Shown: in pieces, positions 31,221 to 63,196 of the stretch
Layout: the number at the start of each line of letters is the position of its first letter
Position numbering within the stretch: position 1 is the stretch's first letter
Translations under genes and position numbers: made by a program
Assembly: GCF_004010195.1 (NCBI RefSeq)
Contig: NC_057719.1
Span: 3,819,208-3,883,207 of the forward strand
Length of the DNA: 64,000 bases
Direction: 5' to 3'
From: Chiloscyllium plagiosum
Taxonomy: Eukaryota
Notes under the pieces: generated by a model
Database searches by the model: none
What the model was told of the DNA's origin: nothing
Seen by the model: only the letters and a program-made list of their open reading frames with translations

Positions 31221-34200
31221 CTCAAGTCACATGGATTGTATCCTTTTGTATATATTGGACCTAAGGGTCTGTTTGTGTGCTGTATTTCTCTGACTCTATA
31301 CCTGATCACACATTTCTGATTTTATTCTAATGCTGCTTCTCCAACGCTTTTTATGTATTACGTTATTACTCCATCTAATTCCTGAAGATTTTCCAGCTTC
31401 AATTTCAAATTTTTTTTTACTTTTGATATCACCATGTTTGGTCCTTCATTTGCCTCTTTAACTTCATGACTACTTTCGATTTGGAACATCATAAAGTCCG
31501 CTAACTGACAACATAGCACTGCTTGCAAAGTCAGAAGAGGACTAGAGTTCATAAAAAATCTGGAATGTTAGAATATATATTGAGTATGAACAGCAAACAG
31601 ATAAAAAAGCAATGTTAGCTGGAAGGAATACATTCAAAGAAACTAGGTTGAAATGGATGGTATTACCCCATATTTGTCTATTTACGACAAATAATGACGG
31701 TATGATACAGAAGTTAGAACAAAGACAGAGAGGCAAAAATTCTATGAAGATTAAGGATGAGTTAACAACAGGAAAATGCAAGTTTGTTACAAAGAAAAGC
31801 TCATAAGATTCTATCTACTGTTCTGTATAGCTCAGAAACCTGACCGGTAAATTGTGGAAGAAAGTAGGGGCCTTTGAAATGCGGCAGCCATGGCATATGC
31901 TAAAAATTCTACATGCAAACCATACAACAAATGGAGAAGTGTTTGAAACTGTAATATCAAAAACAACTCTTAAAAAGTGAAAATGTTAGTACTTTCGACA
32001 TTTGATTGGAGCTGAGAAGCTACATAGCAGGGCCAACATGGGTATTGGTGGATGAAGGGTGCCACAGCATTGTTGCAGATGAGCTACAATGGATGTGTGA
32101 GGGTGGCAGAAGACAGTTGAGCAAGACATGTCATGACAGCAGGAGTAGGTCCTATAATTCCTGCCTCTCTCCTCTTGTTCTAACTTCTGTTTTATATCTG
32201 CCAACCATCTGTATCATTTGTTCTAAATAGACAAACTTATCGACATGTTCCAGGTTACCATCCACTTCAACATTCACACTAGCTTCTTTGAATGTATTCC
32301 TTTTAACAGGTGGGACTGGCTGCTAGCAACAGCAACATTTTCTAATATGCATTACCTACTTGGGAATCAAAGCAAGCTGGTCAGGTTTGTTGATAAGACC
32401 AAATCAGTGAGGTTGGATGTAAATTAATCTGAAGTGACAACAAAGAATTCAACATAAACATTCATTTGGATTATCTGATCATTTGCACATTGCCCTTTAT
32501 GGGATCTTGCTGTGTGCAAATTTCCTTCCTTGTCTCCTACATTACAATAGTGACAATGCTTCGAAAGTACCTCACTGGCTGTGAAATATTTTGCAATTTC
32601 CTGGTGTCATGAAAGGCGTTTTAGAAATGCAAGTCTTTCTTATTTCCTTTCTCAAAAGAAATTCGATACCGAATAATGGAAAGCATTTCATGTTTGAAAT
32701 AAGATTAACCACACGGCTTAAGAGTAACATTGAACAAAACTTGGCTTGAATCAACTTAATTGGATTCCAGCCTGTAACTTAAACTACCGGATATCTATTA
32801 TTCTACATACAAACCACAAAGATCCCTCAATTAGATTTCAACCTGTAACTCACTCCCGGATATTAGTTATTCTATATATAACAACATCTCAATCCAAACC
32901 TGAATTTGTCGATCAGATTCCGTTCCTGATACTTCAGAGTATCATTTAATCCAAGTATAATCAACTGAACTCCACAGTTAGATTTCAGGCCATAACACAT
33001 TAGATATTCCAGCTTGTATCTCTCACCTAGGTATTCATGTTTTTATCATTTAATAAGTACTGTAAGTTTCAACAAACCCATCTTCCACCTGCTTTAACTT
33101 TTGTCATTATATCAAGGGCTACTGGTATGAGCCACTAAAGGCTGACCTTGTTAATACATCCTATGTGTGAACGAAAAGTATATGTGCACACAAATTGGTC
33201 AATATAATTTACACATTTCAAGTTTTTGTGCTATTTTTCTAAAGGAGAATTAAGACAAGTGTGAACTGTTGACCCTATGATTCTGGTTTCTAACCAATGG
33301 ATTAGTTTATTTCCTTGCTGGTTTTGTTCCAGCGAAGTCAATAGGCTGGAAATCTACTCATAGATCTCTGCCAATAGGGCAGAGCAGATTGCCTTAGGGG
33401 GAAAAAAAACATCTTAGCTTATGGGCACTCAGCCTTGCTGGCAAGCTCTGTGTTTATAAACCATATCTGGCTGTACCGACTGGCTGGTGGTGAGCCTTTC
33501 CTTTGAACCACTTGTAGTGGATTGATACAACTGAGTGACTTTCTAGCTCTGTTTAGAGAACACTCAGGAGGCCAACCACATAGTCATAGTGCTGGGGTGA
33601 CATATGGGTCAGGTTACGTAAGGACAGCAAAGTTTCTTCTCAAAAGAATTTGAACAAACCAGTTGGAATTTGTAACAATCTAACAATTTCCGGGTCACTT
33701 TTACTGGCATCAATAATTATTACATTTCTAGATTCAGCAAAACTGAAATTCAAATTTTCAAATGGATGAATCAACCTAGATTATGAGGTGTAATCTTTGA
33801 GTGAAGTATGTTTCAATTGGGAGACAAGTGGGATAAAGTGACAACAGCATCATTTATCATTTGGTTTTGATTACTAATGGAAAGAACAGAAAGCAAAGAA
33901 AGCTGAAAATAGTCAACTGAAGGAGGGCTATCTACAGGGAGTTGAAAAGGGATCTGGCTCAGATTGTTTGGTTAGAAAAGATTAAATAAGAAATAAGAGG
34001 TGATTAATGATGAGTTCAGCTATCAACCAGACATATGCCTATGATGGGGTGGAAGGAAAAGGTCAAAGCTAGATAAGTCAAAAAAGATATTAAATGAAAC
34101 AAAAATATGGTTAAAATAAATAGCAGGACTATGACACAGAAGAGAGTTAAGCTGACTGTACAAAGTGCACAGGAGAACTGAAAGAGGAAATAAATGTGAT

Positions 34201-34356
34201 AAAGAGAATTTTAAAAAATGTTGGGTTAACATAAAAGGAATACTGAAGTGTTCTATCAACATGGAAAGAATAAAAGGATAGTGAAATAAAGGGTGAGCCT
34301 GTTTAAGAGACAAAAAGCAATTTTATGGAGGTAGAGAGAATGGCTGAAGTATTTTG

Positions 34357-34468
34357 CTGATGAAGGGCTTATGCCCGAAACGTCAACTTTCCTGCTCCTC
34401 CGATGCTGCCTGACCAGCTGTGCTTTTCCAGCAACACACTCTGATCTCCAGCAGTCTTCACTTTCTCC
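34357..34468 (+). mobile_element. Family A repeat beginning at the hammerhead core
   Basis: CTGATGAAGGGCTTATGCCCGAAACGTC; TSD CTGAAGYATTTTGC at 34344-34357 and 34469-34482. Confidence 0.8.
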
Positions 34469-34929
34469 CTGAAGCATTTTGCACCCCAATTCATGATAAC
34501 CAGATGTAGCTAATATCACAGCAAAGAACGAAAAGGTAGACAAATTCGATGGAATGAAAAGAAAGTTGCAGACCTTAAGTGGTTAACAAGGCTCAAAGTA
34601 GAAAAGATACCTGAGACAGAGAGGTTGTTTCCGAGGCTGTTGGGAGCAACAAGGAGAGAAATAGTATAAGCTTTAGCCTCAATCTTGCAATGTTTCTGGG
34701 ATATGGGAGTAGGGTCAGAGAACAAAAGGATCACAAATGGTATTCTACTATTCAAAAACAATGGACAGAAAACTAAACCAAAATGACAGAGCAGTCAGCT
34801 TAACTTTGGATCAATTCCCATATCGTTTGATGCCAAACTATGTGTATGGGTTCCTTACAGACTGATTGAGGAGAAGGCAAAGTCAAAGGCTATCTTTAGA
34901 CTTAGACTTCAAAGTAAGAGTACTTTTCG

Positions 34930-36712: not shown

Positions 36713-37551
36713 GAACAATGATACATTAATGCTAAATACAGATGTGCATTGTAATCATAAATATACCAGATTCTGACTTACATTAGGTAAGGACAAATCT
36801 ATCTTCTTCATGAGTTCACTTCTGAAAGAACATCGCAATATGGTCCCAAACTGCCAAAGGTTCTAAAGTTTTCTTGTGTTCTAACTTCACCCGCCCTGTC
36901 CTTATATATTCAGTGATGTGTAGGGTTTCAGCACTCTTACATAACAGTGGGGAAATGTTGTGATAAATAATCTGGCACCAATTAACTGTCACATTGAAGA
37001 ACAGGGCTTCATACTAAACTGGATTTTTAAATCCTCCATCTGCCAATTGCCTTCCAGGCTACCTTCCCCCAGTCCCAGCCCCACCATCCTATTTTTCTCT
37101 CAGCCCACTTCCCACCCCCCACATTCCCGAAGAAGGGCTTATGCCCAAAACATTGACTCTCCTGCTCCTCGGATGCTGCCTGACCTTCTGTGCTTTTCCA
37201 GCACTATACTCTCAATTCTGATCTCCAGCATCAGCAATCCACACTTACTCCAAAAGGAAAATAATGTTTGACAAACCACGTTCCTTATGAAGTTCTACTT
37301 GTGTAGTCAAAGATGTGCATTTGGATTTTTGGAAGGAATTTGATAATATCCACATAATAGACTTTCCGACAAGATTGAAATCTATTGGATTAAAAGGAAT
37401 GATGACAGTGCGGAAATTAAATTGGCTGAGATGGTAGTGGCGAAATGTTGGTTATGAGACTGGAGAAAAGTATAACATAAAAGTGGCTTTTGTAAAGTTT
37501 GCCGACAGTAAAAAAATGTGAACATTGGCCACATTGGCATCAGATGTAAAC

Positions 37552-37730: not shown

Positions 37731-38374
37731 TATTAGGTGTAAACACTCCATTACAAAGAAAGTTAATAAGATTAAGGGAAGTAATCAAAGGACGGGAATC
37801 AGGTAGCACAAATGTGTTATAGAATTTGGGGAAGAATGGAAAAATGATTGTCTGCGAAGTGAGTAATAATCCTATTTAATGCCAGCCATTAGGACTGAGG
37901 CCAGCATTTTTTTTGGGTTGCCTTTAGATTATTTATTAACTACAATACCACAGTTTCTGGCACAAGAGGCTGTTACGATCACTCAACGTTAACAATCTTT
38001 TGGCATTTACTAACCTGGATACCATGGAGAGAATGAAAATATAAAACAAGCAAGTGTTACTGTTTACAAGAACTCAAGCATACAGGAGTAAAATGTAGAG
38101 TTGCAATAGTTACAGGGAAATTAGTCACAGACTTAGACTATATTTGGAAAACATGATTAGCAGGGTGTGACAGTAGTAGTTTATAACAATGCACATAAAG
38201 TTAGGTATTAGCTTTGGCTCAGTGAGTAACACTCTGTAACAGAGGAGGTTGGTTCAAAGTCCCACCCGAAGCCCAAATGGGAACGACTTCTTAAATGTTA
38301 TCCATATTTTTGGACATTATCATCAGCAGAAAAAGATCACCGATTGGCCAGCCTGCCTATTAATGTCACAGAGT

Positions 38375-38960: not shown

Positions 38961-39444
38961 CACCTCAATAACATGTTTGTGCAATTTGTTCTGCTTCTCT
39001 TTCTTCCCCATTTTCCATGATGGTATTCTCACTGTTTGTGTTTCTCTCTCTGGTGTTCGCACAATTCTCCCTGATCTCCACCATCTCTCTTTCTGGCCAC
39101 TTCTGCATCTGTGATTTTAAATGCTGCACTAGTGGGGAGTGTGCCTTCAGCTGCCTACATCCAAAACACTGGATTTTCCTCATTCAATCTTGCTATTTCT
39201 ACGCCTAATTCCTGCTTGGTATGATTTTTCACTCCCAAGAATAATGGTGGGCAAGATGAACTAATCAGGCAAGAATTTAAAAATCAGATACTTACTATTA
39301 ACATATTATAACAGCTGTGATACAATGAGCACTCCCACTGCCTCACAGTCCTGCATGTTTGTTCTAAAATGGTCCTTGCACCAAAGAATATGTGTCACAT
39401 CAAAGAGTCCATTCCATAGTGAATACTATTGAGTTGTCTAACCG

Positions 39445-40990
39445 ACACTGGAGGCAGTCCAGAGAAGATCCACTAGTCCAATCCCAGCTATGGAGGAATT
39501 GTCTTATGGGAAGGAGTTGAGTACATTAGTCCTACAACCATTAGAGTTTAAGTGACTGAGCGGTAATTTTATTGAAACATATAAGAACATAAGAACTAGG
39601 AGCAGGAGTAGGCCATCCTATTCAATAAGATCATGGCTAATCTTTTCGTGGACTCAGTTCCACTTACGCGGTTTCACCATATCCTTTAATTCCTTTATTT
39701 GTCAAAAAAGTACCTTAAGATTCTTACAGGATTCTGCAGGGTAGATGTAGAGAAGTTGTTTTTCCCCTTTGAGGGAGCATTTGGGACCAGCAGACAGTCT
39801 CAGAATAAAGAATTGCACATTTAAGACAGAAATGAACAGGACCTTTTCTTTTGGAGCCTGGTGAATCTGTGGAATTCTTTATCACAGAATGCTGTAGAGT
39901 CAAGGTCACTAAGTATATTCAAGGCTGTGATAATCGGTAAGGGAATCAAGGTAATGGGAAAAGGTGTGAAAGTGAAGTTGTAGATTATAGATAGGCCATG
40001 ATCTGATTGAGTGGTGAAGCAGACCTGATGGCCTGAATGGTTTACTTCTCCCCCTACATGGGAATACCACACCTGGCACCTTGTTTTTCAGGCAGTTCAT
40101 GTCTAAAGGCAGGCAGACCTGGACAATATCCAGGTAAGGAGTGATCAGCTACATTTGCATCACATAAATGTCTAAAGGCAGGCAGACCTGAACAATATCC
40201 AGGTAAGGAGTGATCAGCTACATTTGCATCACACAAATGCCAGGCAATAACCATCTGCAATAAGCGTCAAGTAACCATTGCCCTTTGACATTAAATGGCA
40301 TTACCAACACTGAATCCCACCATCAACATTCTGAGGGTTACATTTCCAGAAACTGAATTGAACTAGCTATATAAATATGATGGTTACAAGAGCAGGTCAG
40401 AGGTTGAGAATACTGCAGCGGGTAACTCACCTCCTGACTCCCCAAAGCTTCTTGTCCACCATCTACAAGTTACAAGTCAGGAGTGTGATGGAATATTCCC
40501 CCCTTGCTTAGATGGGTGCAGCTCCAACAACACTCAAGAATCTTGACTTCATCCAGCCAAAGCAGCCCAATTGATTCACATCACATTCACAAACATCCAC
40601 TCCGATCATCACTGATGCTCAGTAGCAACAGTGTTGTATTATCTTAAGATTCACAGCAGAAATTCACCAAAGATCCTCAGAAAGCACCTTCCAAATCCAT
40701 GACCAATTCCATTGAGAAGGGCTAAGCAGCAGATACATGGGAACACCACCACCTGCATGTTCCCCTGCAAGCCACTCACCACCCTGACTTGGAAACATAT
40801 TGCCATTTCTTCCGTGTTACTGGGTCAAAGTCCTGGAATTTCCTCCCTAAGGGCATTGTGGGTCAACTTACAGCACACGAACTGCAGTGGTTGAAGAATA
40901 CAGCTCACCCTCACCTTCTCAAGGAGCAACTAGGGACAGGCAATAAATGCTGGCCAATTAGTGACACCCACAACCCACAAGTGAATAAAA
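39445..40990 (+). mobile_element. CR1 3' end followed by a second-family LINE 3' part starting with a 69 bp tandem duplication (40099-40236)
   Basis: CR1 tail motifs; ATGTCTAAAGGCAGGCAGACCTG... repeated at 40099 and 40168. Confidence 0.75.
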
Positions 40991-41489
40991 ATAATTTGCA
41001 GAGTAGGAAGAGACAGGAAAGGTGAGAGCCATCTGCAGATTTGCAATGGTGAAAATGTAGCTGGTGGCAGCTCAGCCACTGGAAGCATCTGCTGTAACTT
41101 GATTTGGAGGTGCCGGTGTTGGGACTGAGGTGTACAAAGTTAAAAATATCCTGATGTTGTGTGATTTTTAACTCTGTAACTTGAGACAGCTCCTATTCTG
41201 CATGACACCTGTAGGTCAATAGTGGTCAAAGTTGCAGTGACAATGGAGCTCAGTGCAGCTTTCTTTCACATATGCAAATATGATCACTTTTCCTGTTGTA
41301 ATATTTGTTCATCAATCAGGTGACACACATTGTGACCAAACAAATCAGGAACAATTCAAAGCAGTGACACAAATTTATATTATGCAAATCTTAGCTTGTC
41401 ACCATGATACAACCCCTATTTACACATAGGTTTAATATACAAACACCAAAGATAAAGTCGACTGTCAGAACAACAATAGGGCATGAATA

Positions 41490-43190
41490 GGAAGATGGCA
41501 CTTGGATATCATAGCTATTACAGAAACATGGCTGAGGAAAGGACAGGACTGGCAGAAGGGGACACAACAGAGAAGGGGGAATGGTGTTTTTGATTAAGGA
41601 AAACATTATACAGTAGTTGGAGAGAATATTCCTGAGGGATGGTCCAGTGAAGCTATATGGGTAGAACTTAGAAATAAGAAGGGATGATCACTTTGATAAC
41701 ATTGTACTATCGACCCTCCAGTAGTCAGCAGGAAAGTTAGGAGCAAATATGCCGGGAGATCGCAGATAGATGTAAGAATAATAGGATTGTAATAGTACGG
41801 GATTTTAACTTTCCAAACGTAGACTGGGACTACCATAGGACTTAGATGGGGAGGAATTTGTTAAGTACATTGAAGAAAACATTCTGAATCAATATGTAGA
41901 TGGCCCTACTAGAGAAGAGGCAAAATTCAACTTCCTCTTGGAAAATAAGGCAGGACAAGTAACTGAGGTGTAAGTGGAGGAGCGCTTTGTGATCAGTGAC
42001 CATAATTCTATCAGCTTTAAAATAGTTATGCAAAAGGACCATACTTATGGACCAGAAGCTAAAGTTCTAAATTGAAGCAATTTTGATGGTATCGGACAGG
42101 AACTTTCAAAGGTTAATTTGGGGATGCTGTTCGCAGGTAAAGGTCCATCTGGCAAGTGGGAGGCTTTGAAATGTGAGACAACAAAAGTTTAAGGTCAGCA
42201 TGTTCCTATTAGTGTGAAAGTAAAGGTTGGCAGAATTAGGAAACACTGGATGACTAGAGATAGAATCATACAGCAAAGAAACAGACCCTTTGGCCAACCA
42301 GGTTTCTTAAACTAAACTATGGTTAATAAGTTTGCAGATGGCACCAAAATTGGTGGTACAGTGGACAGCAAAGAAGGTTATCTATGATTACAAAGAGATC
42401 TTAATCAGTTGGGTCAATGGATTGAGGAGCGGCAGATGGAGTTTTACTTGGATAAATGTGAGGTATTGCATTTTGGTAATGCAAACAAGAACATGACTTA
42501 TACAAATAATGGTAGGGTCCTGGGTAGTGTTATTGAACAGAGAGACCTAGAGGCTGAGCTACATAATTCTTTAAAATTTGCATCACAGGATGGTTAGGTA
42601 GGCATTTAGCATTCTTGCCTTCATTTCTCAGACCTTTGAATATCGGGGTTCGGGCATCATGCTGGAGTACTGTATGTAGTTCTGGTTGCCCTGTTATGAG
42701 AAGGATTATTAAACTGGAGAGGGTTCAGAAAAGATTTACCAGGATGTTGCCTGGAATGGAAGGTTGGAGATATAAAAATTGACTGGAACAGGTGGGACTT
42801 TTTTTCACTGTAGCTTAGGAGGTTGAGGAGTGACCTTTTAGAGGTATATAAAATCATCAGGGGCATAGGTAAGGTGAGTGATAAGGGTCTTTTCCCTCGG
42901 GTGGGGAAGGTTCCAAATTAGGGGGCATACTTTTAAGGTGAGAGGAGAAAGATTTTAAAAAGATTATGAGGAACAACTATTTTACACAGACAGTAGTTCA
43001 TGTGTGGAATGAACTGTCATAGAAAATGTGATGGTAGGCACAGTTACAATGTTTAAAAGATATTTGGATAAGTTCACAAATAGGAAAGGTTTGGAGGGAT
43101 ATGGGTCAAGTGCAGGCAGGTGAGATTAGTTTAGTTTGGGAACATGGACTGTTTGGAGCGAAGGGTCTGCTTTCATGCTGTATGACTCGA
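41490..43190 (+). mobile_element. Degenerate, deleted HER1/CR1 ORF2
   Basis: IAITETWL, GDFNFP-like, KFADGTKIGG, QMEFYLDKCEVLHFG and the 3' tail. Confidence 0.85.
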
Positions 43191-48215: not shown

Positions 48216-48916
48216 AAATGCAAGCTGCCACAATTTAATTTTCTTTCCACTGAAATAAATTATTTTTAATCAACCTATTCAGGGATGTTGTTGCACATCA
48301 CTGGAGTAAGTGAGATGAGAACCCAGCCCTGCTGGCTCAGAGGTAAAGGCACTATCACTGCATCGTGAGAGCCCTCCCTGCTACAGAATTATGCTTCTCT
48401 GTCTACCTTCTGCCACATTCACTTGACAATTTAAAGCTGTAATCAGCAGAATCCATCTCTGTCATGCAAATAAGAGAGAGATGGGAAAATTGATTGGGCT
48501 CCTGCTGATATCATGAAGAGCAGAGCAGACCCCTTGCTGAGCACTCCGTTCAGTGTGGGCCAGGTGGATGGTGTAGTGGTAATATCACTGCACCATGAAA
48601 CCAGAGGCACAGGTTAATAATCTGAGAATTGGGCTAAAAGCCGACCACAGTACCTGGTGAAAATGAAATTCAATGACAGCTAGTCTTCAGTACTGCTGAC
48701 AACGAAATTATCTTTGATCATTATGAACAATGGGTTAAAAACCCTACATGGTTCACTAATGTCCTTTGGAAATTTGCTGTCTTTGCCTGGTCTGACCTAT
48801 TTGGGATTCCAGAGCCACAGCCATGTGGTTGGGCTTTGACTACCTAGTTGAAATGTCCTAGCAAGCCAATCAATTCAAGATCAGTTAGGGATGGATAACA
48901 AATATTGGCTTTCCAG

Positions 48917-51900
48917 TGACTCTGCTTCCACCCCACAGCTGGCAATGCATTCCATGCATTCACAACTCTCTGCGTAAAGAACCTACCTCTGACATCTCTT
49001 CTATATCTTCCTCCTAATATCTTAAAACTATGACTCCTCATGCCAGTCAATCCTGCCCTGGGGAAAAGTCTCTGGCTGTTGACTCTATCCATGCCTCTCC
49101 TTACCTTATATACCTCAATCAGGTCTCCTCTCTTCCTCCTTCTCTCCAGAGAGAAAAGTCTGAGCTTAGTCAACCTCTCTTCATAAGACAAGCCATCCAG
49201 TCCAGTCAACATCGTGGTAAACCTTCTTTGCACCCTCTCCAAAACCTTCGTATCTTGCCTATAATAGAGCGACCAGAACTGGACACAATATTCCAAGTGT
49301 GATCTCACCAAGGTTTTATAGAGCTACATCAAAACCTTGTGGCTCTTAAACTCGATCCTCCTGTTAATGAAAACCAAAACACCATATGCTTTCTTAACAA
49401 CCCTATCCACTTGGATGGCAACTTTGAGGGATCTATGTACTTGAACAAGATCCCACTGCCAAGAATCCTGTCTTTAATCCTATATTCAGCATTCAAGTTC
49501 GACCTTCCAAAATGCATCACTTCGCATTTATCCAGGTTGAACTCCATCTGCCATTTCTCAGCCCAGCTCTGCATCCTGTCTATGTCGCGCTGCAGCCTGC
49601 AGTAACCCTCTATACTTTCAGCGACACCTCCAACCTTTGTGTCATCAGTAAATTTACTAACCCACCTCTCAACCTTCTCATCCAAGTCATTTGTAAAAAT
49701 TACAAAGAGCAGAGGCCCAAGAACAGAGCCCTGCGGGACCTCACTCAACACTGACCTTCAGGCAGAATACTTTCCATCTACAACCACTCTCTGCCTTCTG
49801 TCAGACAACCAATTCTGAATCCAGACAGCTAAATCTCCCTGTATCCCATACTTTCTGACTTTATGAATGATCCTACCATGGGAAACCTCATCAAATGCCT
49901 TGCTGAAGTCCATACACACCACATTGATGCTCAACCTTCATTGACCTGTCTCATCACCTCCTCAAAGAACTCAACAAGATTTGTGAGGCATGACCTGCCC
50001 CTCACAAAACCATGTTGACTGCCTTTAATCACACTATGCTTTTCCAAATAGTCATAAATCCTATCCCTCAGAATTCTTTCCAAATCCTTGCTGACCACAG
50101 ACGTAAGACTGACTGATCTGTAATTGCTGAGGATTTCCTTATTCCCCTTTTTAAAAAGTAGAACAACATTCGCTTCTCTCCAATCCTCCGGTACGACTCC
50201 CTTGGAGAGTGAGGAAGCAAAGATCTTCGCTAGTGGCTTAGCAACCTCCTTTCTTGCTTCCCGGAGCAGCCTAGGATAAATCTGGTTTGGCCCTGGGGAC
50301 TTATCAATCTTAATCTTAAAATTTCCAGCCCATCAACTTCATCAATCTTGATCTGGTCAAGCCTGTTTCCTGGCTCCTCAAAGTTCCCATTCACAACAAG
50401 GTCCTGTTCCTTCGTGAAAACCAAAGCAAAAAGCTCATTTAGGGCTTCCCCCATCTGCTCAGACTCCACCCACAAGTTCCCTCTGCTATCCCTGACCAGC
50501 CCTACCTTCTCCCTGATCATTCTCTTATTCCTCATATATAAGTAAAATACCGTTGGGTTCTCCCTAATCCTATTTGCCAAGCCTTTCTCGTGCCCCCTCT
50601 TGGTTCTCCTCAGTCCATTTCTGAGCTCCTTTCTAGCAAGCCTATAACCCTCTAAAGCTGTGCTCGATCCTTGCTTCTTCCACCTTGTGTAAGCTGCCTT
50701 CTTCCTTTTGACGAGAAGCTCCTCTGTTCTCATCATCCAAGGTTCCTTAATCTTACCCCTTCTTACTTGTCTCAGAGGAACAAATCTATGCATCACTCGC
50801 AACAACTGCTCCTTAAATAGTCTCCACATGTCTATTGTGCCCTTTCTATGGGGTGGGTGTACCCTTGCTGTTCTTAATTTCCACCCATACTGATTCAGTA
50901 GACAAACCTTCCTCGACAACCTTTGTTTCTGTAGCTGTGATGCACTCTCTGATTAGCAATTCTATACCCCCTCCTCTTTTTCCACCCTCTTTGTTCTTTT
51001 TAAATGTTCTAAACCCTGGAACATCAAGCAACCCTTCCTGCCCCTATGAAACCCATGTCTCCGTTATGGCCACAACATCATAGTCCCAAGTACTGATCCA
51101 TGCTCTAAGTTTGTCACTCTTATTTCTGACACTCCTTGCGTTAAAGCAGACACACTTAAACTGATCCCTTTGTTTCATCACATGAAATACCTTCCCGATA
51201 GATTCACTACATCCTGTCACTGCCCCATCTACAACTACCCCGCTCTCAGATATGTAGCTCTGGTTCCCACCCCCTTGCCAAACTAGTTAAAATCCTCCCG
51301 AACAAATGAACAAATCTCTGACCCAGGACATTTGTGCCCCTTCAGTTCAGGTGCAACCCATCCTTCATGTACAGGTTCCACCTTCTCCAGAACGCATCCC
51401 AATGGTTTAAGTATCTGAATCCCTCCATCCTGCACCAGCTTCGCAGCCATGTGTTAAGCAGCATTTGCTGACTGTTCCTCATCTCACTGTCTCGTGGCAC
51501 CGGTAGCAAACCTGAGATCACTACTGTACACGTCCTGCTCTTCAGCTTCCAACCTAGCTCTCTGTAGTCACTTTTCAGATCCTTAATCCCTTTCCTGGCT
51601 ACATCATTGGTGCCAATATGTACCACAATTTCTGGCTGCTCACCCTCCCCCTTCAGAACTCTGTAAACCCAATCGGTAACATCCCAGACTCTGGCACCAG
51701 GGAGGCAACATACCTTCTGGGAGTCCTGTTCCAGATCACAAAATCTAACTATTGAGTCCCCTACCACTAGCGCTTTTCTATTCTCCCCCCTTCCCTTCTG
51801 AGCCACAGTGCCAGAGACCTGACAACTATGGCTTTCCCCTGGTAGGCTGTCCCCACCAACAGTATCCAAACCGGTATACTTATTGCTGAGGGGAATGGCC

Positions 51901-52200
51901 ACAGGGGATCCCTGCTCTATCTGTTGGTTTCCTTTCCTCCCCCTGACTGTAACCCAGTTGTCCTTATCCTGTGTCTGAGGAGTGACCAACTCCCTGTACA
52001 TCCTCTCAATTTTTCTCTCAGCCTCCCGGATGATCTGTAGTTCATCCTGCTCCAGCTTCAGTTACCTAACTCAGTTTTCGAGGAGCTGGAGTTGGGTGCA
52101 TTTCCTGCAGATGTGGTTTGCAGAGACATGTGTTGTGTCTCTCACCTGCCACATTCTGCAGGAGGAACATGCAACTGCCCTATCAGCCATACCCCGCTAA
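48917..52200 (-). mobile_element. Near full-length CR1 LINE (ORF1 Zn-finger plus SGNH esterase; ORF2 APE-RT, frameshifted)
   Basis: CSSC...CRKC motif at ~52100-52175; ORF 51342-52001 VVGDSIVR...HIGTND...DGLHLN; RT VPQGSVLGPLLFVIFTNDLD. Confidence 0.95.
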
Positions 52201-53194
52201 TCTGAAAGCCCACAGAGAACTAAACAAAGAAAGAGGAGAAAAGAAAAAAAAGAGAACACCTGAAAACCTACCGAGCTTACAGAGGTAGTTGGAAGGGAAG
52301 CCCTACAGTTTAGGGTCTCGAGTTTACTGATAGAGGTGTTGTCTTTCAATCGAGACATTACACTGAGGCCCAATCTACCCACTCAGCCAGGCACAAACAA
52401 CCTATGGTGTTTTGAAAGAAGAGCAGGGGTGTCTCGGTGTCCAGTGTATCAGGGATGTGAGTTATTCTGTAACTATTGATATTAAAAAAGAAAAATCAGA
52501 TGACCATGCATTATCTTATTGCTGCCTGTGGGATCTTGCTGTGCACACATTTTGACTGGCATGCTTCCAATCTCATTCGTGACTTACATCTCACATTTAC
52601 TGTAAGACACTAATCTAGAATAAATCTTTGTACAAGCGCAGGTTATGTCAAACTGTGTTCATGTTAAATAGTTAGCAGAGTCAGGCCAAGTCCATGCCTG
52701 GAGCTTGAGCATAAGGCCAACACCCCAGGGATCCAGGATGACTTTTGGAGTGTGGGAAACATGAAGTATGCCATTAATAACTTCCTCGCTTCCTGACCTT
52801 GCCATAATCACCATTCTTTGCTCTCTAGATCTAATGTGGAGAGGAAGTCCAGAGACTTGCAGTACCATGGCATCCTGAATTCTCGGAATCAGGGCTAATT
52901 GCTTAACCTGCCTTTCCAGTGTAGGGCACCTGGGCATCTAAAATGAGGCAAAGATACCCCAATTTGCTGTTTTTAGTTGGCAAGTGTCGATATAAGAACG
53001 TGAGATCGTAACTGCTTTCTTTTAAATTAGGATTTGACCTGAAGTTCACATCTTTCTTTTGTGATATTTCGATCAAACTCAGAGTGGGGTGCAGAGCTCT
53101 TAGATAGATGATGGGGAGGAGGAATTCAGCAAGTGTTCTCTCTTGATTTCTGTCTAGCAAACCCTGGTCGAATAAAAAGTGCTAGAAATACTCA

Positions 53195-54175: not shown

Positions 54176-56509
54176 GTCTGTGAATTAGTGTTTCAGGGTC
54201 ACTGATTTCTAAGTTAGTTATACATGAAGAACGCTAATGGCCTCTAATGTCACCTGTGGTTCAATGGGTAAAATTAACATCTCTGAGCCAGAAAGTTGAG
54301 AATTCAAACACCATTCCACACAGTTGAACATTTAGCGCAGACTGACATGTCCAATGCAGTACTAAGGAAGGGTTACATTGTGGGAGGGGTTATCTTTCTG
54401 AGAAAATGTTAAATCAAGAATCCTAGCTTACCCTCATAGGCTGATATGAAAATTGTAATGGCCCAAGATCCCTACTTTGAACAACAGATAACTTCTCCTG
54501 GGCTCCCAGTCAACGTGCAATATTTATCCCTCAAACAATATCACTGAAAATTTGTCATTTGGTCATTATCACATTGCTGTTTATGAGATTTGGATGAACG
54601 TTAATTGAAAGTCGCATTCCCAATAGTGACTACACTTTGAAAATATTTAATTGGCAATAAAGTGGGATGTCATGAAAGATGCTGTGTAATCACAAGTTCT
54701 TTCTTTCATTGTGATTCAGGTTCAGTTCACTTATTCAAGTGCTAAACCCATATATGAAATGAAACATTACATTAGATGCAAAGATATCTGGGTTAACGTG
54801 CCCCACATGAACAATTACACTTTTTATTGTGACCAGGTGACATGCATGAATTCCAAAGCGTCTCACGTCACTTAAGGGTATATAAACCAAACTAGTTGTT
54901 TCTTATAAAAGAAATAAAATGACGAAACAATTATTTACAGCAGTGGTCAGTACTTCTTAGTATAACAATTAATATTGCCACCTTGATTTCTAAGATGTTG
55001 ATCTGCAGGATATTGGGTCAGCCACACAGTGTGAGAATGAACTCAAGTGCATGTAAAAACAAGAAAGAGTGACAACTTCGAGTTTTACTGAATTCAGAAT
55101 CACATTTTGCTATGGTAAAGATTTGAAAACTTGATTTTTAAGTTGCTTGTCCAGTGCTATATCTATTAGGTCACCATACCTGATTGGTTGGATGAGTTTG
55201 GAGATGTTTAAAGTGGTTGATGACGTAAAGTTTGAATGGGTATAGAATTGGCAAATCAGTATAACATATAATACATCTCAAACTGGAGATCAGACTTTGG
55301 AGAAGGTGCAGAATAGATGTATTAGAATGGTAATATCTGTAACAGACTTAATGAGAGATTGAATAAGTTGCTCTTTTTTAGAGGATGAAGAAGTTTTTTT
55401 TCATTTGAGGGACCTTATGTGAAACTGGAGAAGTTGTTTTCCTTTCTCTCTTCAGAGAAAAGGTAAAAGGGAGATGGTTTGGAATGGTTTTGACAGTAAA
55501 TAAGGGGAAACTTCAAATGGAAGAAAAGTCAGCTACCAGAGCACATTAGTTTCAGATAACTGGCAAAGGAATCACACATGAAGAAATATTTATTTTAAGC
55601 AACGAGATGTTATGATCTGGCATGGTGGTGAAAGAGGATTCAATAATAACATTTGAAAGACAATTGAATAAATATTGAAGGGGAAAAATGTGTGGCTGTG
55701 AGGAAGGAGAGGCCGGGTCAGGGCAGTGAGATTAATTAAAGAACTGGCACAACACAAGGGGTCAAGTGGCTTCCTTACAGACATGTGAAGTAGAAGCAAA
55801 AGTCAACCATTTGACTGTCTAGTCTGCTCTGCTATTCAGTAAGATTATGACTAACCTGTTTATGTTTTGAATTCCACATTCCCATCCAGCCCTGAACACC
55901 CTTGATTCCCTGCCAAACAAGAATCTGTTCTGAGGAAGGGTCACTGAACCCAAATAATTAACTCTGCTTGCTCCCCACAGATGCTGGCAGACCTGCTGAG
56001 CTTTTTCCAGCGTGTTCTTTTTGCTTTTGATTTCCAGCAACCATAGTTCTTTTTTCTGTCTATGAACTTATCCATCTCCAACTTAAAAATATTCAGCAAC
56101 CCCTCTGCACTTTCTTCTGAGGCAGTCAGTTGTAAAGTCACATGACATTTTTAGAGAAAAAAATATCATCTCTGTCCTAAAAGGGTGACCCCTAATTTTA
56201 AAACCCTATTCTTCTGGACTGTACTCCCAAGAAAAAAACATTGTCTCCATGTCCACCTTGTCAGGACCATTCAGAATCTTATGCACTTCCAACCTGCAGT
56301 GGAAAGAAGTCCAGCCTGTTTAATGTTCCTCATAACACACTGCGTTTATTCTTGCTGTGCTGTTACATTGTAAGATTCCATGAATGCAGCTAAAATACTT
56401 CAATTTTGTCAGTAAACAGAATGAAACCCTACGAGGTTTATACAGGGGAATGCGCGCACCTGCAGATTCATCTGAACGGACAGGCAATTGAATACAAGGT
56501 AATCTCATT

Positions 56510-57150
56510 TTTAAAAATTCATTTGTGGGATGTGGGCGTCGCTAGCTAATCAGCATTTAATTTTCATGCTAAGTTACCCTTGAGAAGGTGATGGTGAGCT
56601 GCCTTCTTGAACCACAGTAGTATATTTGCTGTGGGTTGACCCACAATGCCATTGGGAAGGGACTTCCAGAATTCTGACTTAGTAACAGTGAAGGAATGGC
56701 GATATATTTCCTAGTTAGCATGGCGCGTGGCTTGGAAGGGAACTTACAGAAGGTGCCCGTGTCCTTCTAGATGGAAGTGATCGTGGGTTTGGGAGGTGCT
56801 GTCTGAGGATCTTTGGTATACTTCTGCAGTGCATCTTATAGATAGTACACACTGCTTCTATTGAGCATTGGTGGTGGAAGGAGTGGATATTTCTGGGTGT
56901 GGTGCCAATCAAGCGGGCTGCTTTTGTCCTGGATGGTATCAAGCTTCTCGAGTGTTGTTGGAGCTGCATCCATCTGTCACACTCCTGACTTGTGCCCTGT
57001 AGATGGTGGATGAGCTTTGGGGAGTCAGGAGGTGAGTTACTCAGCACTATATTCCCAGCTTCTGACCTACTGTTGCAGCCACTGTGTTTATGTGGCAAGT
57101 CCAGTTGAGCTTCTGATAGATAGCAACCCCCAGGATGTTGATAGTTGGGA
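56510..57150 (-). mobile_element. Second-family LINE 3' end
   Basis: Homologous to 34930-35900; KAARLIGT...AVCTIYKMHC. Confidence 0.8.
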
Positions 57151-57314
57151 CTTTGCACTCACAAAACCCTTAGTAAGTCAATCCCTATATTGAGGAGCAA
57201 TCTGATTGAACTGATCTATTTGAGCTAGTCAATAACCTACACCAATGCTTGGTGATAGCAGCCAATAGTACTTGTACAGTAGAGGTGTGGTATGGTGATG
57301 ACAGCCTGAGGTAT

Positions 57315-58550
57315 CATAGAGTCATTGAGACTTACAGGTCGGAAACAAGCCCTTTGGCCCAAACTGGCCCATGCTGACCAAAATGTCTGTTCACACTAAT
57401 CCGATTTCCCTGCACTTGGCCCATATCCTTCTAAACCTTCCCTATCCATGTATTTGTCCAAATGCCTCCTAAATGTTGTTAATGTACCCTCCTCAACCAC
57501 TTCTGCCGGCAGCTCATTCCATATGCGTACCACCCTCTGTGTAAAAACGTTGCCCCTCAGGTTCCCTTTTATTCTTTTCCCTCTAACCTTAAACTGATGG
57601 CCTCTAGTCCTCAATTCCCCAACCCTGGGAAAAAGACTGAGTGCATTCACCTTATCTCTGCCTCTCATGATCTTCTACACTTCTATAGGATCTCTCCTCA
57701 GTCTCTTTTGCTCAACAGAAAAATTTCCTAGCTTGTCCAACATCTCCCTATTACTCAGACCCTTGACTCCTGGCAATATCCTTGTAAATTTCTTCTGGAC
57801 TTTTCTGCAAAGTGAGATCTGGAACCACAGTTAAGTAGGATAAATTGGCCTTGGAGAAGTACAACATAGGCTTACAAGAATGATACCTGGCCTTCAGAGC
57901 ATAAGCTATGAGGAAATATTAGGCCTGTTGTCTCCAGAATTCAGAAGGTTAAGGTCTGATCTGATTGAAATCTTCAAGATGTTAGCATGAAAAGACAAGG
58001 TTGATAATGATAAACCATTCCCAATGGTTGGGGATTCTTGAACCAGGGGCATGAGAATTAGAGGAGAAAGTGAGGACTGCAGATGCTGGAGATCAGAGCT
58101 GAAAATGTGTTGCTGGAAAAGCGCAGCAGGCCAGGCAGCATCCAAGGAGCAGGCGAATCAAAGTTTCGGGCATGAGCCCTTCTTCAGGAATCTCAGGCTC
58201 ATGCCCGAAACTTCGATTCTCCTGCTCCTTGGATGCTGCCTGGCCTGCTGCGCTTTTCCAGCAACACATTTTCAGCATGAGAATTAGGGCTGGAACATTT
58301 AGGAGAGATGTTAGGAAGCATCTTTACACATAAAGGGTGGTAGATGTTTGGAACGTTCTTCTACCAACAGCAGTGGAAGTGAGATCAATTGTTAATTTTC
58401 AATCTGAGATAGATTGTTATTTTGTTAAGCAAATGTATTAAGGGATACAGGCCAAAGGGAAGCGTATGGAGTAAAGTCACAGATCAGTCATAATCTCATT
58501 GAATGATGGAACAGGCTCAAGGGGTTGAATGGCTTCCTCCTGTTTCTATG
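57315..58550. mobile_element. Two divergent CR1 3' ends (minus 57315-57805, plus ~57805-58550); the plus copy carries an inverted family A pair at 58062-58276
   Basis: GNVFTQRVVRIWNELP; TSD GCATGAGAATTAG around the insert. Confidence 0.85.
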
Positions 58551-59503
58551 TTACTATTACATAACATTGAAAATGTTGGTTGTACATTCCTTAACAAAAT
58601 AACTGAAACTAAAATATTCCTTGTTACAGTTATTTTCTTTTCCTCACAGAAGTTCTGTAGGCGTTTTGTCTGTGAATCAAGCATACTGCTTTTGAAATGA
58701 ATGCATTACTTCCATTTTAAGTGTGATGATTTAAAAATTGGATCCAAATAGGGACAAGAAATTCCATCTGTTTTTATAATCCCCAAAGGATACAGGGCTC
58801 TTGAAATGAGCTGATCCTTGTTTGCTGTTGCGAAAATGGTGGCAGGCCATGTTCTTAAATACTCAAAGTATTCCCATAAAAAGTACATTTGAGTAGGAAA
58901 TATGAGATCCTGGTATACACAGCAACCATGCTGCCCCTGAGGTGGCAGCAGTAAATATTGAAGGTAGTGAATGGGTGGAGGGCGGGGGGGGATGCTAATC
59001 AAGCAGGCTGGTCTGTACTGGGTGGTGTCATCTGGGCATCATGCAAGGATAGATAATCCAGCCCCTGGCCATATCTGCATTTGGTCTCAATAGTGTGAAG
59101 GAGACAGTGTTGGGAACAGCGAATACAGTACATCAGATTGAAAGAAGTACAAATGAAATGTTGCTTCACCAGGAAAGTGTATTTGGGGCCTAAGACTGTG
59201 AGGAGACAGAAGGTGAATGGATAAGTGGTACATCTTCTGCAATTGTGTGGGAAGATACCGTGAGGAAAGTGTTAGGAGTAATGAAGGATTGAACCAGGAC
59301 ACCACCGAGGGAACAGTCCCAGTGAATATGATTAATAAAGGGATTAAAGGTTACAGAGAGAAGGCAGTAGAATGGGGTCAAGAACTATATTAGCCATGAT
59401 TGAATAGTGGAGCATTCTCAATGGGCCAAATGGCCTAATTCTGCTCCTATATCTTATGGACAATGGTTCTCTACCCCCACAGCTTCCCTCACAAGAACAC
59501 TTA

Positions 59504-59597
59504 GCCTGATGAAGGAGCAGTGCTCTGAAAGCTTGTGATTTCAAATAAACCTGTTGAACTATAACCTGATGTTGTGTGACTTCTGACATTGTCCACA
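59504..59597 (+). mobile_element. Family B repeat with a hammerhead-like core
   Basis: CCTGATGAAGGAGCAGTGCTCTGAAAGCTTGTG...AAACCTGTTGAACTATAACCTG. Confidence 0.7.
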
Positions 59598-60199
59598 AGA
59601 ACAGAAGCAGTGAGGGACCATCATCACCTTCAAGTTCCCCTTCAGATTACAGTCTCTCCTGCCTTAACCATATTATTGTTGCGTGGTCAAAATCCTGGAA
59701 TTCCCGACTTAGCAATGTCTTTACTGCTACATCTTCTCAGAGCAACCAGGAGCAGGAAATAATCATGGCTGTGAACAAACTAATAAACAAACTACAAAAT
59801 TCTGCTTCACCAAAGAGTTAAACATTACATTCTTTGTATTTCCACCCCCACAAATCAAACTCTTCAGCATGTTGTCTAGATTACAGGCTCTCTCCTGCTT
59901 CTGTGTTTTCCATTGAGCTAGTTTCCACTTTAGAAAGCTTGGAGGTAATAATGAAGCAGAATATTAATAGACATATTATGTGGGAATTATGGCAAATATG
60001 TGAAGAATCTTTCTGACCTTGTCTTTTCATTCCAATCCAATGTGAACAAATGACTTTTTTTTAGAGAGGACAAGAGGGAAAAAGAATTTAATCTCATTCA
60101 TGTTGCCAGATGTAAGGATCTTTAAAATAATTATATTTCGATATTTTTTGAAGTGGTTAATTTGAATGTAAAGCAAATCTGTGATGCAACATACTTAGG

Positions 60200-61335
60200 A
60201 GTTCAATTTATGAGTTTTTAACTAATGAGAAGGATAACTTATGAGGGATGCATTTAGGAAGATCTGATTTATGGGGTGTGTGCTTATATAGGATTTGAAA
60301 ATGGAGGGGTTGATTTATGATGGTTTGATTTGTAAGGAACTTGACATATGAGGGAGCTAGATTTATGAAGGTCAGATATGTTGGGTTTGAAATATGGAAG
60401 GTTAATTTATGACAGTCTAATTTATGAGGACCCAATTTATGAGGGTTTGTTTTTGTAAGTTTTTGATTTCTGACTGGTATTGATTCACAGGGTTCTTTCC
60501 AGCAAGTTGATTTATGGGAGATTAATTTATGAGGTTTGAATGAAGAGGGGTTGATTTGAGGCATATTTATGATGATTTAATCTGTGAGGGGTTGTTTATG
60601 AGAAAAATGGTTTATGAAGGTTTTGATTTATAAGGGATTTTGATTTACAGGGCTTGATAGTGGGATGCTTCATGGAGGATTGGCTTGCACTGTGAGAGTT
60701 TATTTGTGAAGAAAATTAAATTGATTTGGAAAGGTTGATTTTTGTGTGTTTAGTCACAAGATGTATGATTGACCAAAAACTCAACTTTGAGGATTTGATT
60801 TATGAGGACTTTGATTACTTGGGAGGGTGGATTTACGAAAGGATTTTATTTATAGGATTGGAATTAGGAGGGGTTTGATTTGTTCAGAATCTGACGAGGA
60901 GTTTGATTTCTTTTGATTTGTCATACAAGAGGGGTATTGATTTATGAGGGGTTAGATTTATGAAGGATATTCATGAATAATTTTGTCAGCAAGAGGTTTA
61001 TTTAAAACATTAGGTGATTTATGAAGGGTTTTATTCCATGAAAGATTGATTCATGTGGTTTTGAGCTAACAGACGGTTTATGTATAATTGTTTGATTTTT
61101 CAGGATTTTTTGGGGGGTTCATGAATGAATGTTTGATCTGTAAGAGTTTACTTACTATAGAAATGGGTTGTGAGGGATTTTGATTTATGAAAGATTGTTT
61201 CGTGTGGTTTGTAGTTGAAAGAATATGATAAGTGAGCATCTGGGTATTAATGATCTGATTGGGGAGAGGCATTAGGGATTTATGAATGGGAAATCGTGTT
61301 TGACAAAATTGGATTTATTAAAAATATTCAATTAT
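60200..61335 (+). repeat. Degenerate minisatellite, core GATTTATGAGGG(T), period roughly 15-17 bp
   Basis: Many TGATTTATGA(G/A)G variants; strongly C-poor plus strand. Confidence 0.75.
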
Positions 61336-61865
61336 GGGATGCTGGCATCACTCCATTGGCTGCCCATCTCTAGTTGCCCTTGAGATGGTGGTGAGCTGTC
61401 TTCTTAAAACGTTGCAGTCCATGTGCTGTAGGAAGACCCACAGGGAGGGAATTCCAGGATTTTGACCCAGCAACAGCGAAGAAACAACAATATATTTCCA
61501 AGTCAAGATTGGGAATAGCTTGGAGGGGAACTTGAAGGCGGTGGTGTTCCCATATATCTGCTGCCCTTGTTCTTCTAGATGGAAGTGGTCATGGGTTTAG
61601 AAGATGCTGTCAGAGGAGCTTTGATGAATTTCTGCAGTGTATCCTGTAGATGGTACACACTGCTTCTACTGACCATCGGTGGTGATGGGAGTGGATGCTT
61701 GTGGATGTGGTGCTAATCAAGAGGGCTGCTTTGTCCTGAATGGTGTCAAGTTTCTTGAGTATTGCTGGAGCTGCACTCATCCAGGCAAGTGGTGACTCTT
61801 CCATCACAGTCCTGACTTGTGCCTTGTAAATGACGGACTGTGCTTGAAGTCAGGAGGTGAGTTAA
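61335..61865 (-). mobile_element. Second-family LINE 3' end
   Basis: ORF 61610-61807: LKKLDTIQDKAALLI...AVCTIYRIHC. Confidence 0.8.
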
Positions 61866-62020
61866 GAAATGGTTTCCTCTTAAGACTAGAGTCTAGGACC
61901 AGAGAGTACAATCTCAGAGTTAGGAGTCGCATGTTTAGGACAGAGAGGAGGAGACCTTTATTCTCTCAGAGGGTTGTGAATCTGTGTGATTATAATCTGT
62001 CTGAATTGGTGATGCTAAAT

Positions 62021-63196
62021 TGTGGGAATAGAATTACATTACTGTCCAATTTCAAAGCAGTTTCCCCTTTACATATCTTGATTTGTTGCCTACACACAGA
62101 CAGGCAGAAGACTGTACTTTATGATTTTTGATTCATTTTGCTCGTCAAAAGCGGCCTTGTTTATTCTCAGCAGAAAGGATATTCAGGGATGTGTAGGTTA
62201 GGTGTATTAGTCAAGAGTAAATGTAGAGTAATAATGTAGAGGAATGGGTCTGTTTGGGTTACTCTTCAGAGGGTCGGTGTGGACTTGTTGGGTCTAATGG
62301 CCTGTTTCCACAATGTAGGGATTCTTTGAATGATCTATCTATGAATAATCAGTAAATGGAATCAAAGGTTGTGGGGAAAAAAAACAGGAAAGTGGAGTTC
62401 AGACATGATCTCATTGAATGGTGGAACAGACTTGATGAGCTAAATGGCCCAATTTTGCTCTTACGTCTTATCATTTTGTAGATTATAAGGAGTTTAATTA
62501 ATGAGGGGTCATGATTTATGAGGTCTTTGATGTTTTAAGAACATAATTTCTGAGTGGTTTTATTTATGTGGCAAATATGTGATGAATGGTCATCTTTTCA
62601 TATCTGCTTCATCGTTTTCAAGATTTGGAAAAAAACATTTCTCAAAAGCATTTCAAAATTTTTGATTAAGAATGCATTTAATGGTTGCTATTTAGCAGGC
62701 AAACAACATTACTCTTCATGGCAACATCAAACTGTTAACTAAAGTATCATGTAGCAAATCTAGTTTGTTTTTAACAATTTATCCATTTTCTTCCACTTTC
62801 CATTCTCCTCACATACATCTGGAACAAAGTCATGATCTTTTGGCCTGACATTTAATGCGTGATTCATAGGACAACTCCAAACGTTCATTTTGAAATATGG
62901 CCAGCAATGTTGCAAGGTCAACTTAAGCTCAGGCTTGAGGGTCCAATAATTGTCCATGGGATCTTTGGGGTAAAGGAAGGAAAAAAAAATTCTTAAAAAC
63001 AAGAGAAATTATTTTTTTTAAACAAACAAGATCAATGCTCTTTTTGCTGAGAATAAACAAGGCTGCTTTTGATGAGCAAAATGAATCAAAAATCATAAAG
63101 TACAGTCTTCTGCCTGTCTGTGTGTAGGCAACAAATCAAGATATGTAAAGGGGAAACTGCTTTGAAATTGGACAATAATGTAATTCTATTCCCACA
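62021..63196. repeat. ~157 bp inverted duplication (62021-62177 and 63040-63196)
   Basis: TGTGGGAATAGAATTAC...CTCAGCAGAAAG is the reverse complement of CTTTTTGCTGAG...GTAATTCTATTCCCACA, with about 4 mismatches. Confidence 0.95.

Follow-up and report, generated by a model that had tools for sequence, protein, structure and literature searches.

Proteins of the CCDC33 family are the closest described counterparts of the locus analyzed here. In the available text of Hong et al., Xenopus Ccdc33 has 1097 amino acids (PMC12796433; 10.1101/2025.02.19.639145), and the text of supplementary Fig. 11 gives the architecture of CCDC33 as three C2 domains and a coiled coil (PMC12796433). The Tetrahymena protein C2D1 (I7LU65; TTHERM_00243990), which is proposed as the ciliate orthologue, shares this combination of domains and is placed at the cilia tip (PMC12796433; 10.1101/2025.02.19.639145). 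According to the same text, multiciliated cells of the frog depend on CCDC33 for the length and the beating of their cilia, and the gene is put forward as a candidate human motile-ciliopathy locus (10.1101/2025.02.19.639145).

Relics of genes are already a familiar category. In unitary (unprocessed) pseudogenes, remnants of exons persist between introns, are marked by stops, indels, and repeat insertions, and are shared with close relatives; the candidate exons of this locus appear to be of this kind. In a search limited to papers available without subscription, no paper was found that joins CCDC33 with sharks or with gene loss, and those that join CCDC33 with pseudogenes appear unrelated.

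The stretch of DNA analyzed, hereafter the window, comprises 64,000 nucleotides of the shark Chiloscyllium plagiosum. Its minus strand carries a series of islands between repeats that are quite likely the exons of an unprocessed, intron-bearing CCDC33-family pseudogene running from at least 62962 down to about 36800. Around a dozen collinear islands probably fit the CCDC33 layout, in which a coiled coil joins three C2 domains. The relic of the dead gene is probably that of the shark CCDC33, although no database match links it to that name. Compared with vertebrate CCDC33, the order of segments appears to be the same and scattered residues appear to match in about a dozen islands. In contrast with the vertebrate genes, the frames are broken and unconstrained, and the first exon and the synteny of CCDC33 were not found in the window.

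Exon-like anatomy of the locus

The peptides quoted in a preliminary description of this DNA lie on the minus strand in the order given there, and the candidate exons built around them are collected in Table 1. The proposed AG...GT pairs at 62962-62817, 58909-58710, and 56471-56399 were recovered, while the exon starting at 52937 ends at 52798 rather than 52800; AG acceptors are present at 59937 and 53163. The extent of the gene had been given as reaching 31330, an end coordinate that was rejected, as no result supports an exon there. No 3' exons and no neighboring gene were recognized below 36800, nor was a neighboring gene recognized elsewhere in the window.

Table 1. Candidate exons and other elements of the locus
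Feature	Position	Strand	Length (nt)	Boundaries and phase	Frame and lesions	Remarks
E1, candidate exon	62817..62962	-	146	AG/GT; ends in phase 0	one open frame (48 codons)	
E2, candidate exon	59885..59937	-		starts in phase 0, matching the end of E1		single-copy depth
E3, candidate exon	58710..58909	-	200	ends in phase 2; alternative acceptor 58936	open in one frame	
E3b, candidate exon	57241..57305	-	65	AG/GT; phase 2 to 1	open	new; bridges E3 and E4
E4, candidate exon	56399..56471	-	73	AG/GT; phase 1 to 2	open	
E5, candidate exon	54867..55002	-	136	phase 2 to 0	broken	
E6, candidate exon	53050..53163	-	114	phase 0 to 0	open	
E7, candidate exon	52798..52937	-	140	AG/GT; phase 0 to 2	open	
LINE	48850..52260	-				near full-length, decayed; in the intron between E7 and E8
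E8, candidate exon	48423..48587	-		AG/GT	each frame holds two stops, TGA at 48464 among them	TGA lies right after a peptide of the preliminary description
E9, candidate exon	41330..41531	-		uncertain	TAA at 41393	
E10, candidate exon	39033..39283	-				QMQK motif at 39111
E11, possible exon	37949..38014	-	66	strong AG, weak GT		uncertain
E12, possible exon	36820..36930	-			one open frame	uncertain; last island relatable to the gene
Inverted duplication	62021..63196	.				recent; encloses E1

The six candidate exons from E3 to E7 (E3-E3b-E4-E5-E6-E7, 58909 to 52798) are bounded by AG and GT and form a phase-compatible chain, and E1 and E2 are likewise in phase. E3b was sought because the phases of E3 and E4 mismatched, and it was found in a locus-specific island, inside a contig of run X1 (57088-57374). 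For E5, the phase-matched pair 54980/54908 of the preliminary description is unsupported; the AG before 55002 (top 10%) phase-matches the exon ending at 56399, and an exon at 54980-54908 was rejected on account of the weak AG near 54981 (top 43%) and the lack of a GT after 54908. A frameshift inside E7 was also rejected, as the end of E6 (53050) and the start of E7 (52937) are both in phase 0. E2 either ends at the GT at 59884, giving a stop-free exon of 53 nt, or runs on through the TAA at 59883. We infer that the islands once formed one gene.

The acceptors were ranked with a generic matrix among the 4,451 minus-strand AGs of the window, and the named acceptors fall in the top 1-13%. On this scoring E1 has an acceptor in the top 1.2% and a donor in the top 9%, E7 an acceptor in the top 5% and a donor in the top 3%, and E4 an acceptor in the top 4% with a weak donor (top 37%). 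The combined acceptor p value is 0.0003 if each AG was the sole choice and rises to 0.08 if four neighboring AGs were on offer each time and the best was taken. Several donors were picked to fit phase and the boundaries were chosen post hoc, and AG/GT-bounded open stretches of at least 60 nt are common in the window (148 minus, 146 plus).

A reference-free count compares the strands for open AG...GT stretches of at least 110 nt in unmasked DNA. Between 31000 and 63100 there are 20 such stretches on the minus strand versus 5 on the plus strand, as against 10 versus 15 between 1 and 31000 (Fisher p=0.009). The excess fades at 140 nt or more (11:3 versus 10:9, p=0.16), and the length thresholds were chosen after the candidates had been seen. 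The count lends modest support to exons beyond chance.

Several islands have a presumed place in the CCDC33 protein. E1 is taken to be an early part of the first C2 domain, E3b the first strand of the second, and E6, with the strongest presumed resemblance to CCDC33, the end of the second; E9 presumably ends the third. The 5' part of E3 may fit CCDC33 in another frame, which would mean a frameshift. Frameshifts would also be implied in E10, two frames of which appear to resemble the start of the coiled coil, and E12 and, weakly, E11 presumably continue the coiled coil. The QMQK motif of E10, noted earlier, is the only one on the minus strand. A crude scan for E/K/Q/R/L-richness did not flag 39283-36820 as coiled coil.

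Two other elements lie at the locus. The LINE holds long frames at 51345-52061, 50233-50952, 49332-49757, and 48847-49323, and it appears to be of CR1 type by its ORF1-like and reverse-transcriptase-like frames. The arms of the inverted duplication span 157 nt each (62021-62177 and 63040-63196) and are 97% complementary; no target-site duplication was seen at it.

Copy number, lesions, and divergence

Comparison with read contigs at 90% identity or more spans 52600-60100, which holds E2 to E7; E1 and E8-E12 lie outside. The islands in this span are single-copy, with depths of about 11-30 and one contig per run, while the repeats between them reach thousands to millions. Contigs from the same species (run X1) differ by 0-2 substitutions and no gaps in 8 of the 8 pieces listed, with one substitution and no gap for E3, where the contigs of run X10 also show no gaps. 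The islands of this span are therefore neither a young repeat nor assembly errors. The preliminary description had allowed for segments matching a repeat family; the many copies of an interspersed repeat were not found, which speaks against young repeats in 52600-60100 and leaves room for old ones below 90% identity. No second copy of the islands was found elsewhere in the window, and one copy at 90% identity or more was found in each of three organisms.

The heavy decay described earlier is uneven across the islands. A single open frame survives from AG to GT in six of them, and in others no frame is left unbroken. Disabling stops are present in all frames of E5 (3, 4, and 3 per frame) and of E8. 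The stops reported earlier at 59883, about 48465 (located at 48464), and 41393 are present, although the TAA at 59883 overlaps the possible donor GT at 59884 and may be intron rather than lesion. Organism B (run X10), about 3% diverged, has gained a stop in E6 (53145 G>A, CAA>TAA; one contig, depth 10.9) and has lost the acceptor AG of E5 (55004 T>A). Organism C (run X18) carries a 7-nt insertion in E5 at 54873-54874.

Divergence is at a neutral level. In X10 there are 9 substitutions in 255 exon bases, from E6 and E7 only, versus 11 in 371 flanking bases (p=0.82). Of the exon changes, 6 are non-synonymous, including one stop, and 3 are synonymous; E7 accounts for 5 of them, 4 non-synonymous. 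Purifying selection is thus not apparent on E6 and E7, in small numbers, and nine substitutions are too few to separate neutrality from moderate constraint (p=0.07 against a dN/dS of 0.15). RNA run X21 has a depth of 0 in the bins covering E2, E3, E5, and E7, a weak observation from 2% of one single-cell polyA run of unspecified tissue. The stops in all frames of two islands, the lesions in a relative, and the neutral-level divergence support the conclusion that the locus is dead and holds no working gene, in agreement with the pseudogenization proposed earlier. Absolute dating of the decay was rejected, as there is no reference for decay and the sole rate at hand is 7e-10 per base per generation (PMC10587355, available text).

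Searches for identity

Database searches do not identify the relic. Word-based searches for homologous proteins with peptides from the window, which reach close relatives only, raised 74, 131, and 3 candidates, none of which passed E<=10. In two homologue searches the query read through from E6 to E7 across the 112-nt intron, and about 37 of its 128 residues are non-coding. A phmmer search of E6 (44 residues) against 1.84 billion representatives gave no match at E<=0.001. In Pfam, 25 and 34 single-exon queries returned no C2 match and only noise (E 0.01-0.3) below the curated cut-offs; the C2 domain spans several exons, so such queries have little power. PDB searches, which also gave no similarity to Tetrahymena C2D1, returned nothing better than an E value of 0.23 (E9, at chance level). 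Atlas searches gave nothing usable (best score 0.76), and Rfam had no matches in the window. The presumed C2 ends of E3 and E9 do not align pairwise with E6, and AlphaFold single-sequence models of single fragments are uninformative (pLDDT 51 and 56).

The quoted peptide pairs score 14-41 by hand with BLOSUM62. When a protein of 950 residues is compared with all six frames of 64 kb, about 36 hits are expected by chance at a score of 41 and about 2,200 at 28; each pair taken singly is within chance. The human peptides in these pairs are putative, and a published text search for one quoted peptide found no match. The CCDC33 orthologue presumably lies between STRA6 and CYP11A1. The P450 heme motif of CYP11A1 is absent from all six frames of the window, where missing 3' exons could fill the space.

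Alternative explanations

There is about an even chance that the locus is the CCDC33 orthologue itself, a unitary pseudogene in a lineage that lost the gene. The single copy in three organisms is in keeping with this. So is the published description of CCDC33 as a single gene of ancient origin, for which an orthologue in ciliates is proposed and a paralogue is not mentioned (10.1101/2025.02.19.639145). The missing heme motif may count against an orthologue. A recently dead one should have matched intact shark proteins; all searches were blank, and therefore the loss, if this is the orthologue, would be old or widely shared. That this is the sole CCDC33 of these sharks, and that it died too early for a close intact relative to stand in the protein databases, is a tentative proposal. 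Less probable than the orthologue is an ancient paralogue, now dead, which might date from the vertebrate genome duplications and would have diverged far from CCDC33 already, while an intact CCDC33 survives elsewhere. The blank searches would fit a gene without a close living relative. A divergent protein that has decayed only to a limited extent is also suggested by the six islands that are still open in frame, given their low apparent similarity to CCDC33. However, open frames of such lengths are expected by chance in 7-32% of stretches, E5, E8, and E10 are badly broken, and the available text of the CCDC33 papers mentions no paralogue.

Chance resemblance, in which short peptides encoded by ordinary old DNA, whether intronic or intergenic, were matched post hoc, is unlikely. 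The blank searches, the chance-level scores of single pairs, and the abundance of exon-like stretches are all compatible with it, and neutral divergence is also typical of plain non-coding DNA. Against it, about a dozen islands on the same strand appear to follow the order of CCDC33, their phases form a chain, E3b was predicted from that chain, and open stretches are in excess on the minus strand. The exon-like anatomy is independent of the name, and the best presumed matches fall within C2 strand patterns, which are common to many families. The relic could accordingly come from a different C2-domain or coiled-coil gene that is CCDC33-like only in generic strand patterns, but this is improbable, as the presumed matches extend, in order, to linkers and to the beginning of the coiled coil, and Pfam gives no other family above noise. 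Least credible is a gene that is still alive, evolving fast or shortened, and that uses the open exons alone. E1, E3, E3b, E4, E6, and E7 are each open with AG/GT ends, yet E5 within the chain has stops in all frames, skipping its 136 nt shifts the frame, organism B has the stop in E6, and the exons are no more conserved than their flanks.

Decay of the locus and implications

If the locus is a CCDC33 relic, the protein of its intact ancestor would have had a coiled coil in addition to three C2 domains and would have acted like CCDC33 elsewhere, in microtubule bundling and capping at the extreme tip of motile cilia. Disabling of the gene would have ended selection, after which stops, indels, losses of splice sites, retrotransposon insertions, and the local inverted duplication would have accumulated at the slow rate of sharks. 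The locus would make no protein today.

The significance depends on which explanation holds. A chance resemblance would have none, and a dead paralogue would add modestly to the known losses after genome duplication. If the orthologue was lost, a whole shark lineage would build its motile cilia and sperm flagella in the absence of a tip protein that both ciliates and mammals have kept. In that lineage nature would have knocked out the extreme-distal-tip module, and the partners CCDC78 and Jhc1 may show matching changes. A vertebrate lineage without CCDC33 would put to the test whether the tip module is essential, and to what degree, and how the structures of the tip diversify.

Candidate exons and other features (window coordinates)
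Feature	Position	Strand	Observation
E1	62962-62817	-	AG...GT
E2	59937 (start)	-	Acceptor
E3	58909-58710	-	AG...GT; ends in phase 2
E3b	57305-57241	-	65 nt, open, AG...GT; phases 2 to 1
E4	56471-56399	-	AG...GT; starts in phase 1
E5	55002-54867	-	Stops in all three frames
E6	53163-53050	-	Acceptor
E7	52937-52798	-	AG...GT
E8	48587-48423	-	Stops in all three frames
E9	41531-41330	-
E10	39283-39033	-
QMQK motif	39111	-
E11	38014-37949	-
E12	36930-36820	-
Donor-like site	53196-53164	-	Very strong (score 7.8); ends a LINE fragment, 32 nt upstream of E6 acceptor
LINE	48850-52260	-	Decayed, almost full-length
Inverted duplication	62021-62177, 63040-63196		157 nt, recent, 97% complementary; arms 862 nt apart, flanking E1
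Array	4680-8580		∼350-nt units, A-rich tracts between; period 354 at 5636-6593; sequence gap 5040-5334
Degenerate tract	60200-61300		Short imperfect units, strong skew; GC skew 0.42 in 60001-62000
Tandem duplication	40099-40239		69 nt, two copies, 97% identical
Open frame	31362-31567	-	69 codons, K/E/L-rich
Open frame	23683-23970	-	96 codons, unique DNA

Candidate exon anatomy

The preliminary description placed a heavily decayed CCDC33-like gene over 31330-62962, and the peptides that it quoted are found on the minus strand in the order claimed. Its splice sites hold for E1, E3, E4, and E7 and for the acceptors of E2 and E6, but not for an exon at 54980/54908, where the AG is weak, the GT is absent, and a better acceptor precedes 55002. 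Nothing supports a gene end at 31330; the nearby open frame at 31362-31567 gives nothing above noise in Pfam, and we know of no resemblance between it and CCDC33.

The mismatch between the phases of E3 and E4 led to the search for an intervening exon, and E3b was found between them. A phase-compatible chain runs through E3, E3b, E4, E5, E6, and E7, and the junction of E1 with E2 is in phase. Because some donors in the chain were picked for fit, only two or three junctions are independent constraints. Among the 4,451 AGs of the minus strand, seven acceptors rank in the best 1-13% under a generic splice matrix (combined p=0.0003 if each AG was the sole choice; p=0.08 if it was the best of four). 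Open AG...GT stretches of at least 110 nt in unmasked DNA number 20 minus and 5 plus in 31000-63100 vs 10 and 15 in 1-31000 (Fisher p=0.009), and 11:3 vs 10:9 at 140 nt or more (p=0.16), both thresholds being chosen to let the known candidates in. Candidates of at least 60 nt are common across the window (148 minus, 146 plus). Overall, the anatomy favors a decayed minus-strand gene, short of proof.

Lesions and divergence

Stop codons are confirmed at 59883, 48464, and 41393, although the first of these, a TAA, coincides in part with a potential splice donor and hence may be no lesion. Comparison across organisms relies on four of 24 listed sequencing runs, three of DNA (X1, the closest organism; X10, organism B; X18, organism C) and one of RNA (X21), and covers 52600-60100, with E1 and E8-E12 outside. 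In each of the three DNA runs, the islands in this interval have the depth of single-copy sequence, against thousands to millions in the intervening repeats. All eight listed X1 contig pieces are gapless and differ from the window by 0-2 letters, which excludes assembly errors as the source of the breaks.

Divergence from the window is ∼3% in organism B and ∼4-5% in organism C. Individual differences are those among the 40 of 350 substitutions and 12 of 30 indels listed. In the X10 piece over E6 and E7, for which 20 of 21 substitutions are listed, the exons carry 9 over 255 bases and the flanks 11 over 371 (p=0.82); within 52600-53225, 10 gap letters in organism B and 18 in organism C have no assigned position. 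Of the nine exon substitutions, three are synonymous and six non-synonymous, one of which creates a stop in E6; this split fits neutrality (p=0.45) and stands only weakly against a dN/dS of 0.15 (p=0.07). The E5 acceptor, too, is gone in organism B; each of its two lesions is seen in one contig, and neither occurs in organism C, in which E5 carries a 7-nt insertion. Four X10 changes are listed in E5, and all lie outside the four stops of its phase-matched frame. The stops in every frame of E5 and E8 and the neutral-fitting substitutions support a dead locus with no working gene, as the preliminary description held.

In X21, bins spanning E2, E3, E5, and E7 have zero reads, a weak silence because 2% of a single single-cell polyA run of unspecified tissue was sampled. 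Bins with E3b, E4, and part of E6 have reads and overlap repeats.

Genomic setting

Repeats abound in this shark-type DNA, 36% of the window having a second copy inside it. No intact protein-coding gene was recognized anywhere in the window; those long frames that could be identified are retrotransposon remnants, and several remaining ones cross gaps. An Rfam search of the window gives no match. The first frame of the LINE contains a GDS..R / HIGTND pattern, which we take to be the esterase-like ORF1 of CR1 elements. The inverted duplication shows no target-site duplication and no further copy within the window; the segment between its arms, including E1, could be inverted. The frame at 23683-23970 bears what we take to be a faint likeness to a later part of the CCDC33 coiled coil, probably by chance.

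Family identity and alternative readings

Set beside human CCDC33, E6 appears to resemble the protein over ∼26 residues, ungapped, with weaker apparent likeness, in order, at E1, E2, E3, E3b, E5, E7, E8, E9, E10, and E12. These putative matches run in the order of Xenopus Ccdc33, laid out as three C2 domains plus a coiled coil in supplementary file 6 of PMC12796433. Membership in the CCDC33 family is a probable lead, and the name given earlier is unconfirmed. Word-based homolog searches with island peptides scored none of 74, 131, and 3 candidates, phmmer matched E6 to none of 1.84 billion representatives at E≤0.001, and Pfam (25 and 34 queries), PDB (4), and Atlas searches returned noise or nothing. 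Protein searches are low-powered for short decayed pieces, but after these blanks the databases are unlikely to contain an intact protein of close similarity. Structure models of single fragments are uninformative, and a literature text search for one previously quoted human peptide gives no match.

Chance is a rather unlikely source of the resemblance. Taken singly, the peptide pairs first offered are within chance: they score 14-41 (by hand, BLOSUM62), where ∼36 matches at 41 and ∼2,200 at 28 are expected over the window at random. There is an even chance that the islands are the dead CCDC33 ortholog, a true gene loss, as the family has a single known member. Against this, the P450 heme motif of CYP11A1, presumably the neighbor gene of CCDC33, is absent from the window, though missing 3' exons could fill that space. 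A dead paralog is a minority prospect that draws on the blank protein searches and on low apparent similarity combined with several open frames. A relic of another C2 gene is very improbable, and a live gene scarcely credible.

Proposed history and significance

An intron-bearing CCDC33-type gene would first have lost function and then decayed neutrally as retrotransposons, such as the LINE, filled its introns and the inverted duplication formed round E1. At present the locus is inactive. The intact ancestor would have acted like frog CCDC33: in motile cilia, that protein bundles microtubules at the extreme tip together with CCDC78 and sets cilia length and beat (10.1101/2025.02.19.639145). 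Other sources report the CCDC33 partner Jhc1, on the basis of a skate database, for cartilaginous fish (10.64898/2026.02.04.703868), testis enrichment of mammalian CCDC33 (PMC9933954), and ciliate C2D1 on the tip central pair (10.1101/2024.12.02.626492). Our literature search found no publication joining ccdc33 with shark or with gene loss, and one work, on Jhc1, that treats ccdc33 together with synteny. As an unprocessed pseudogene, the locus is of a type already known; only as the sole CCDC33 of the lineage would it hold real interest.
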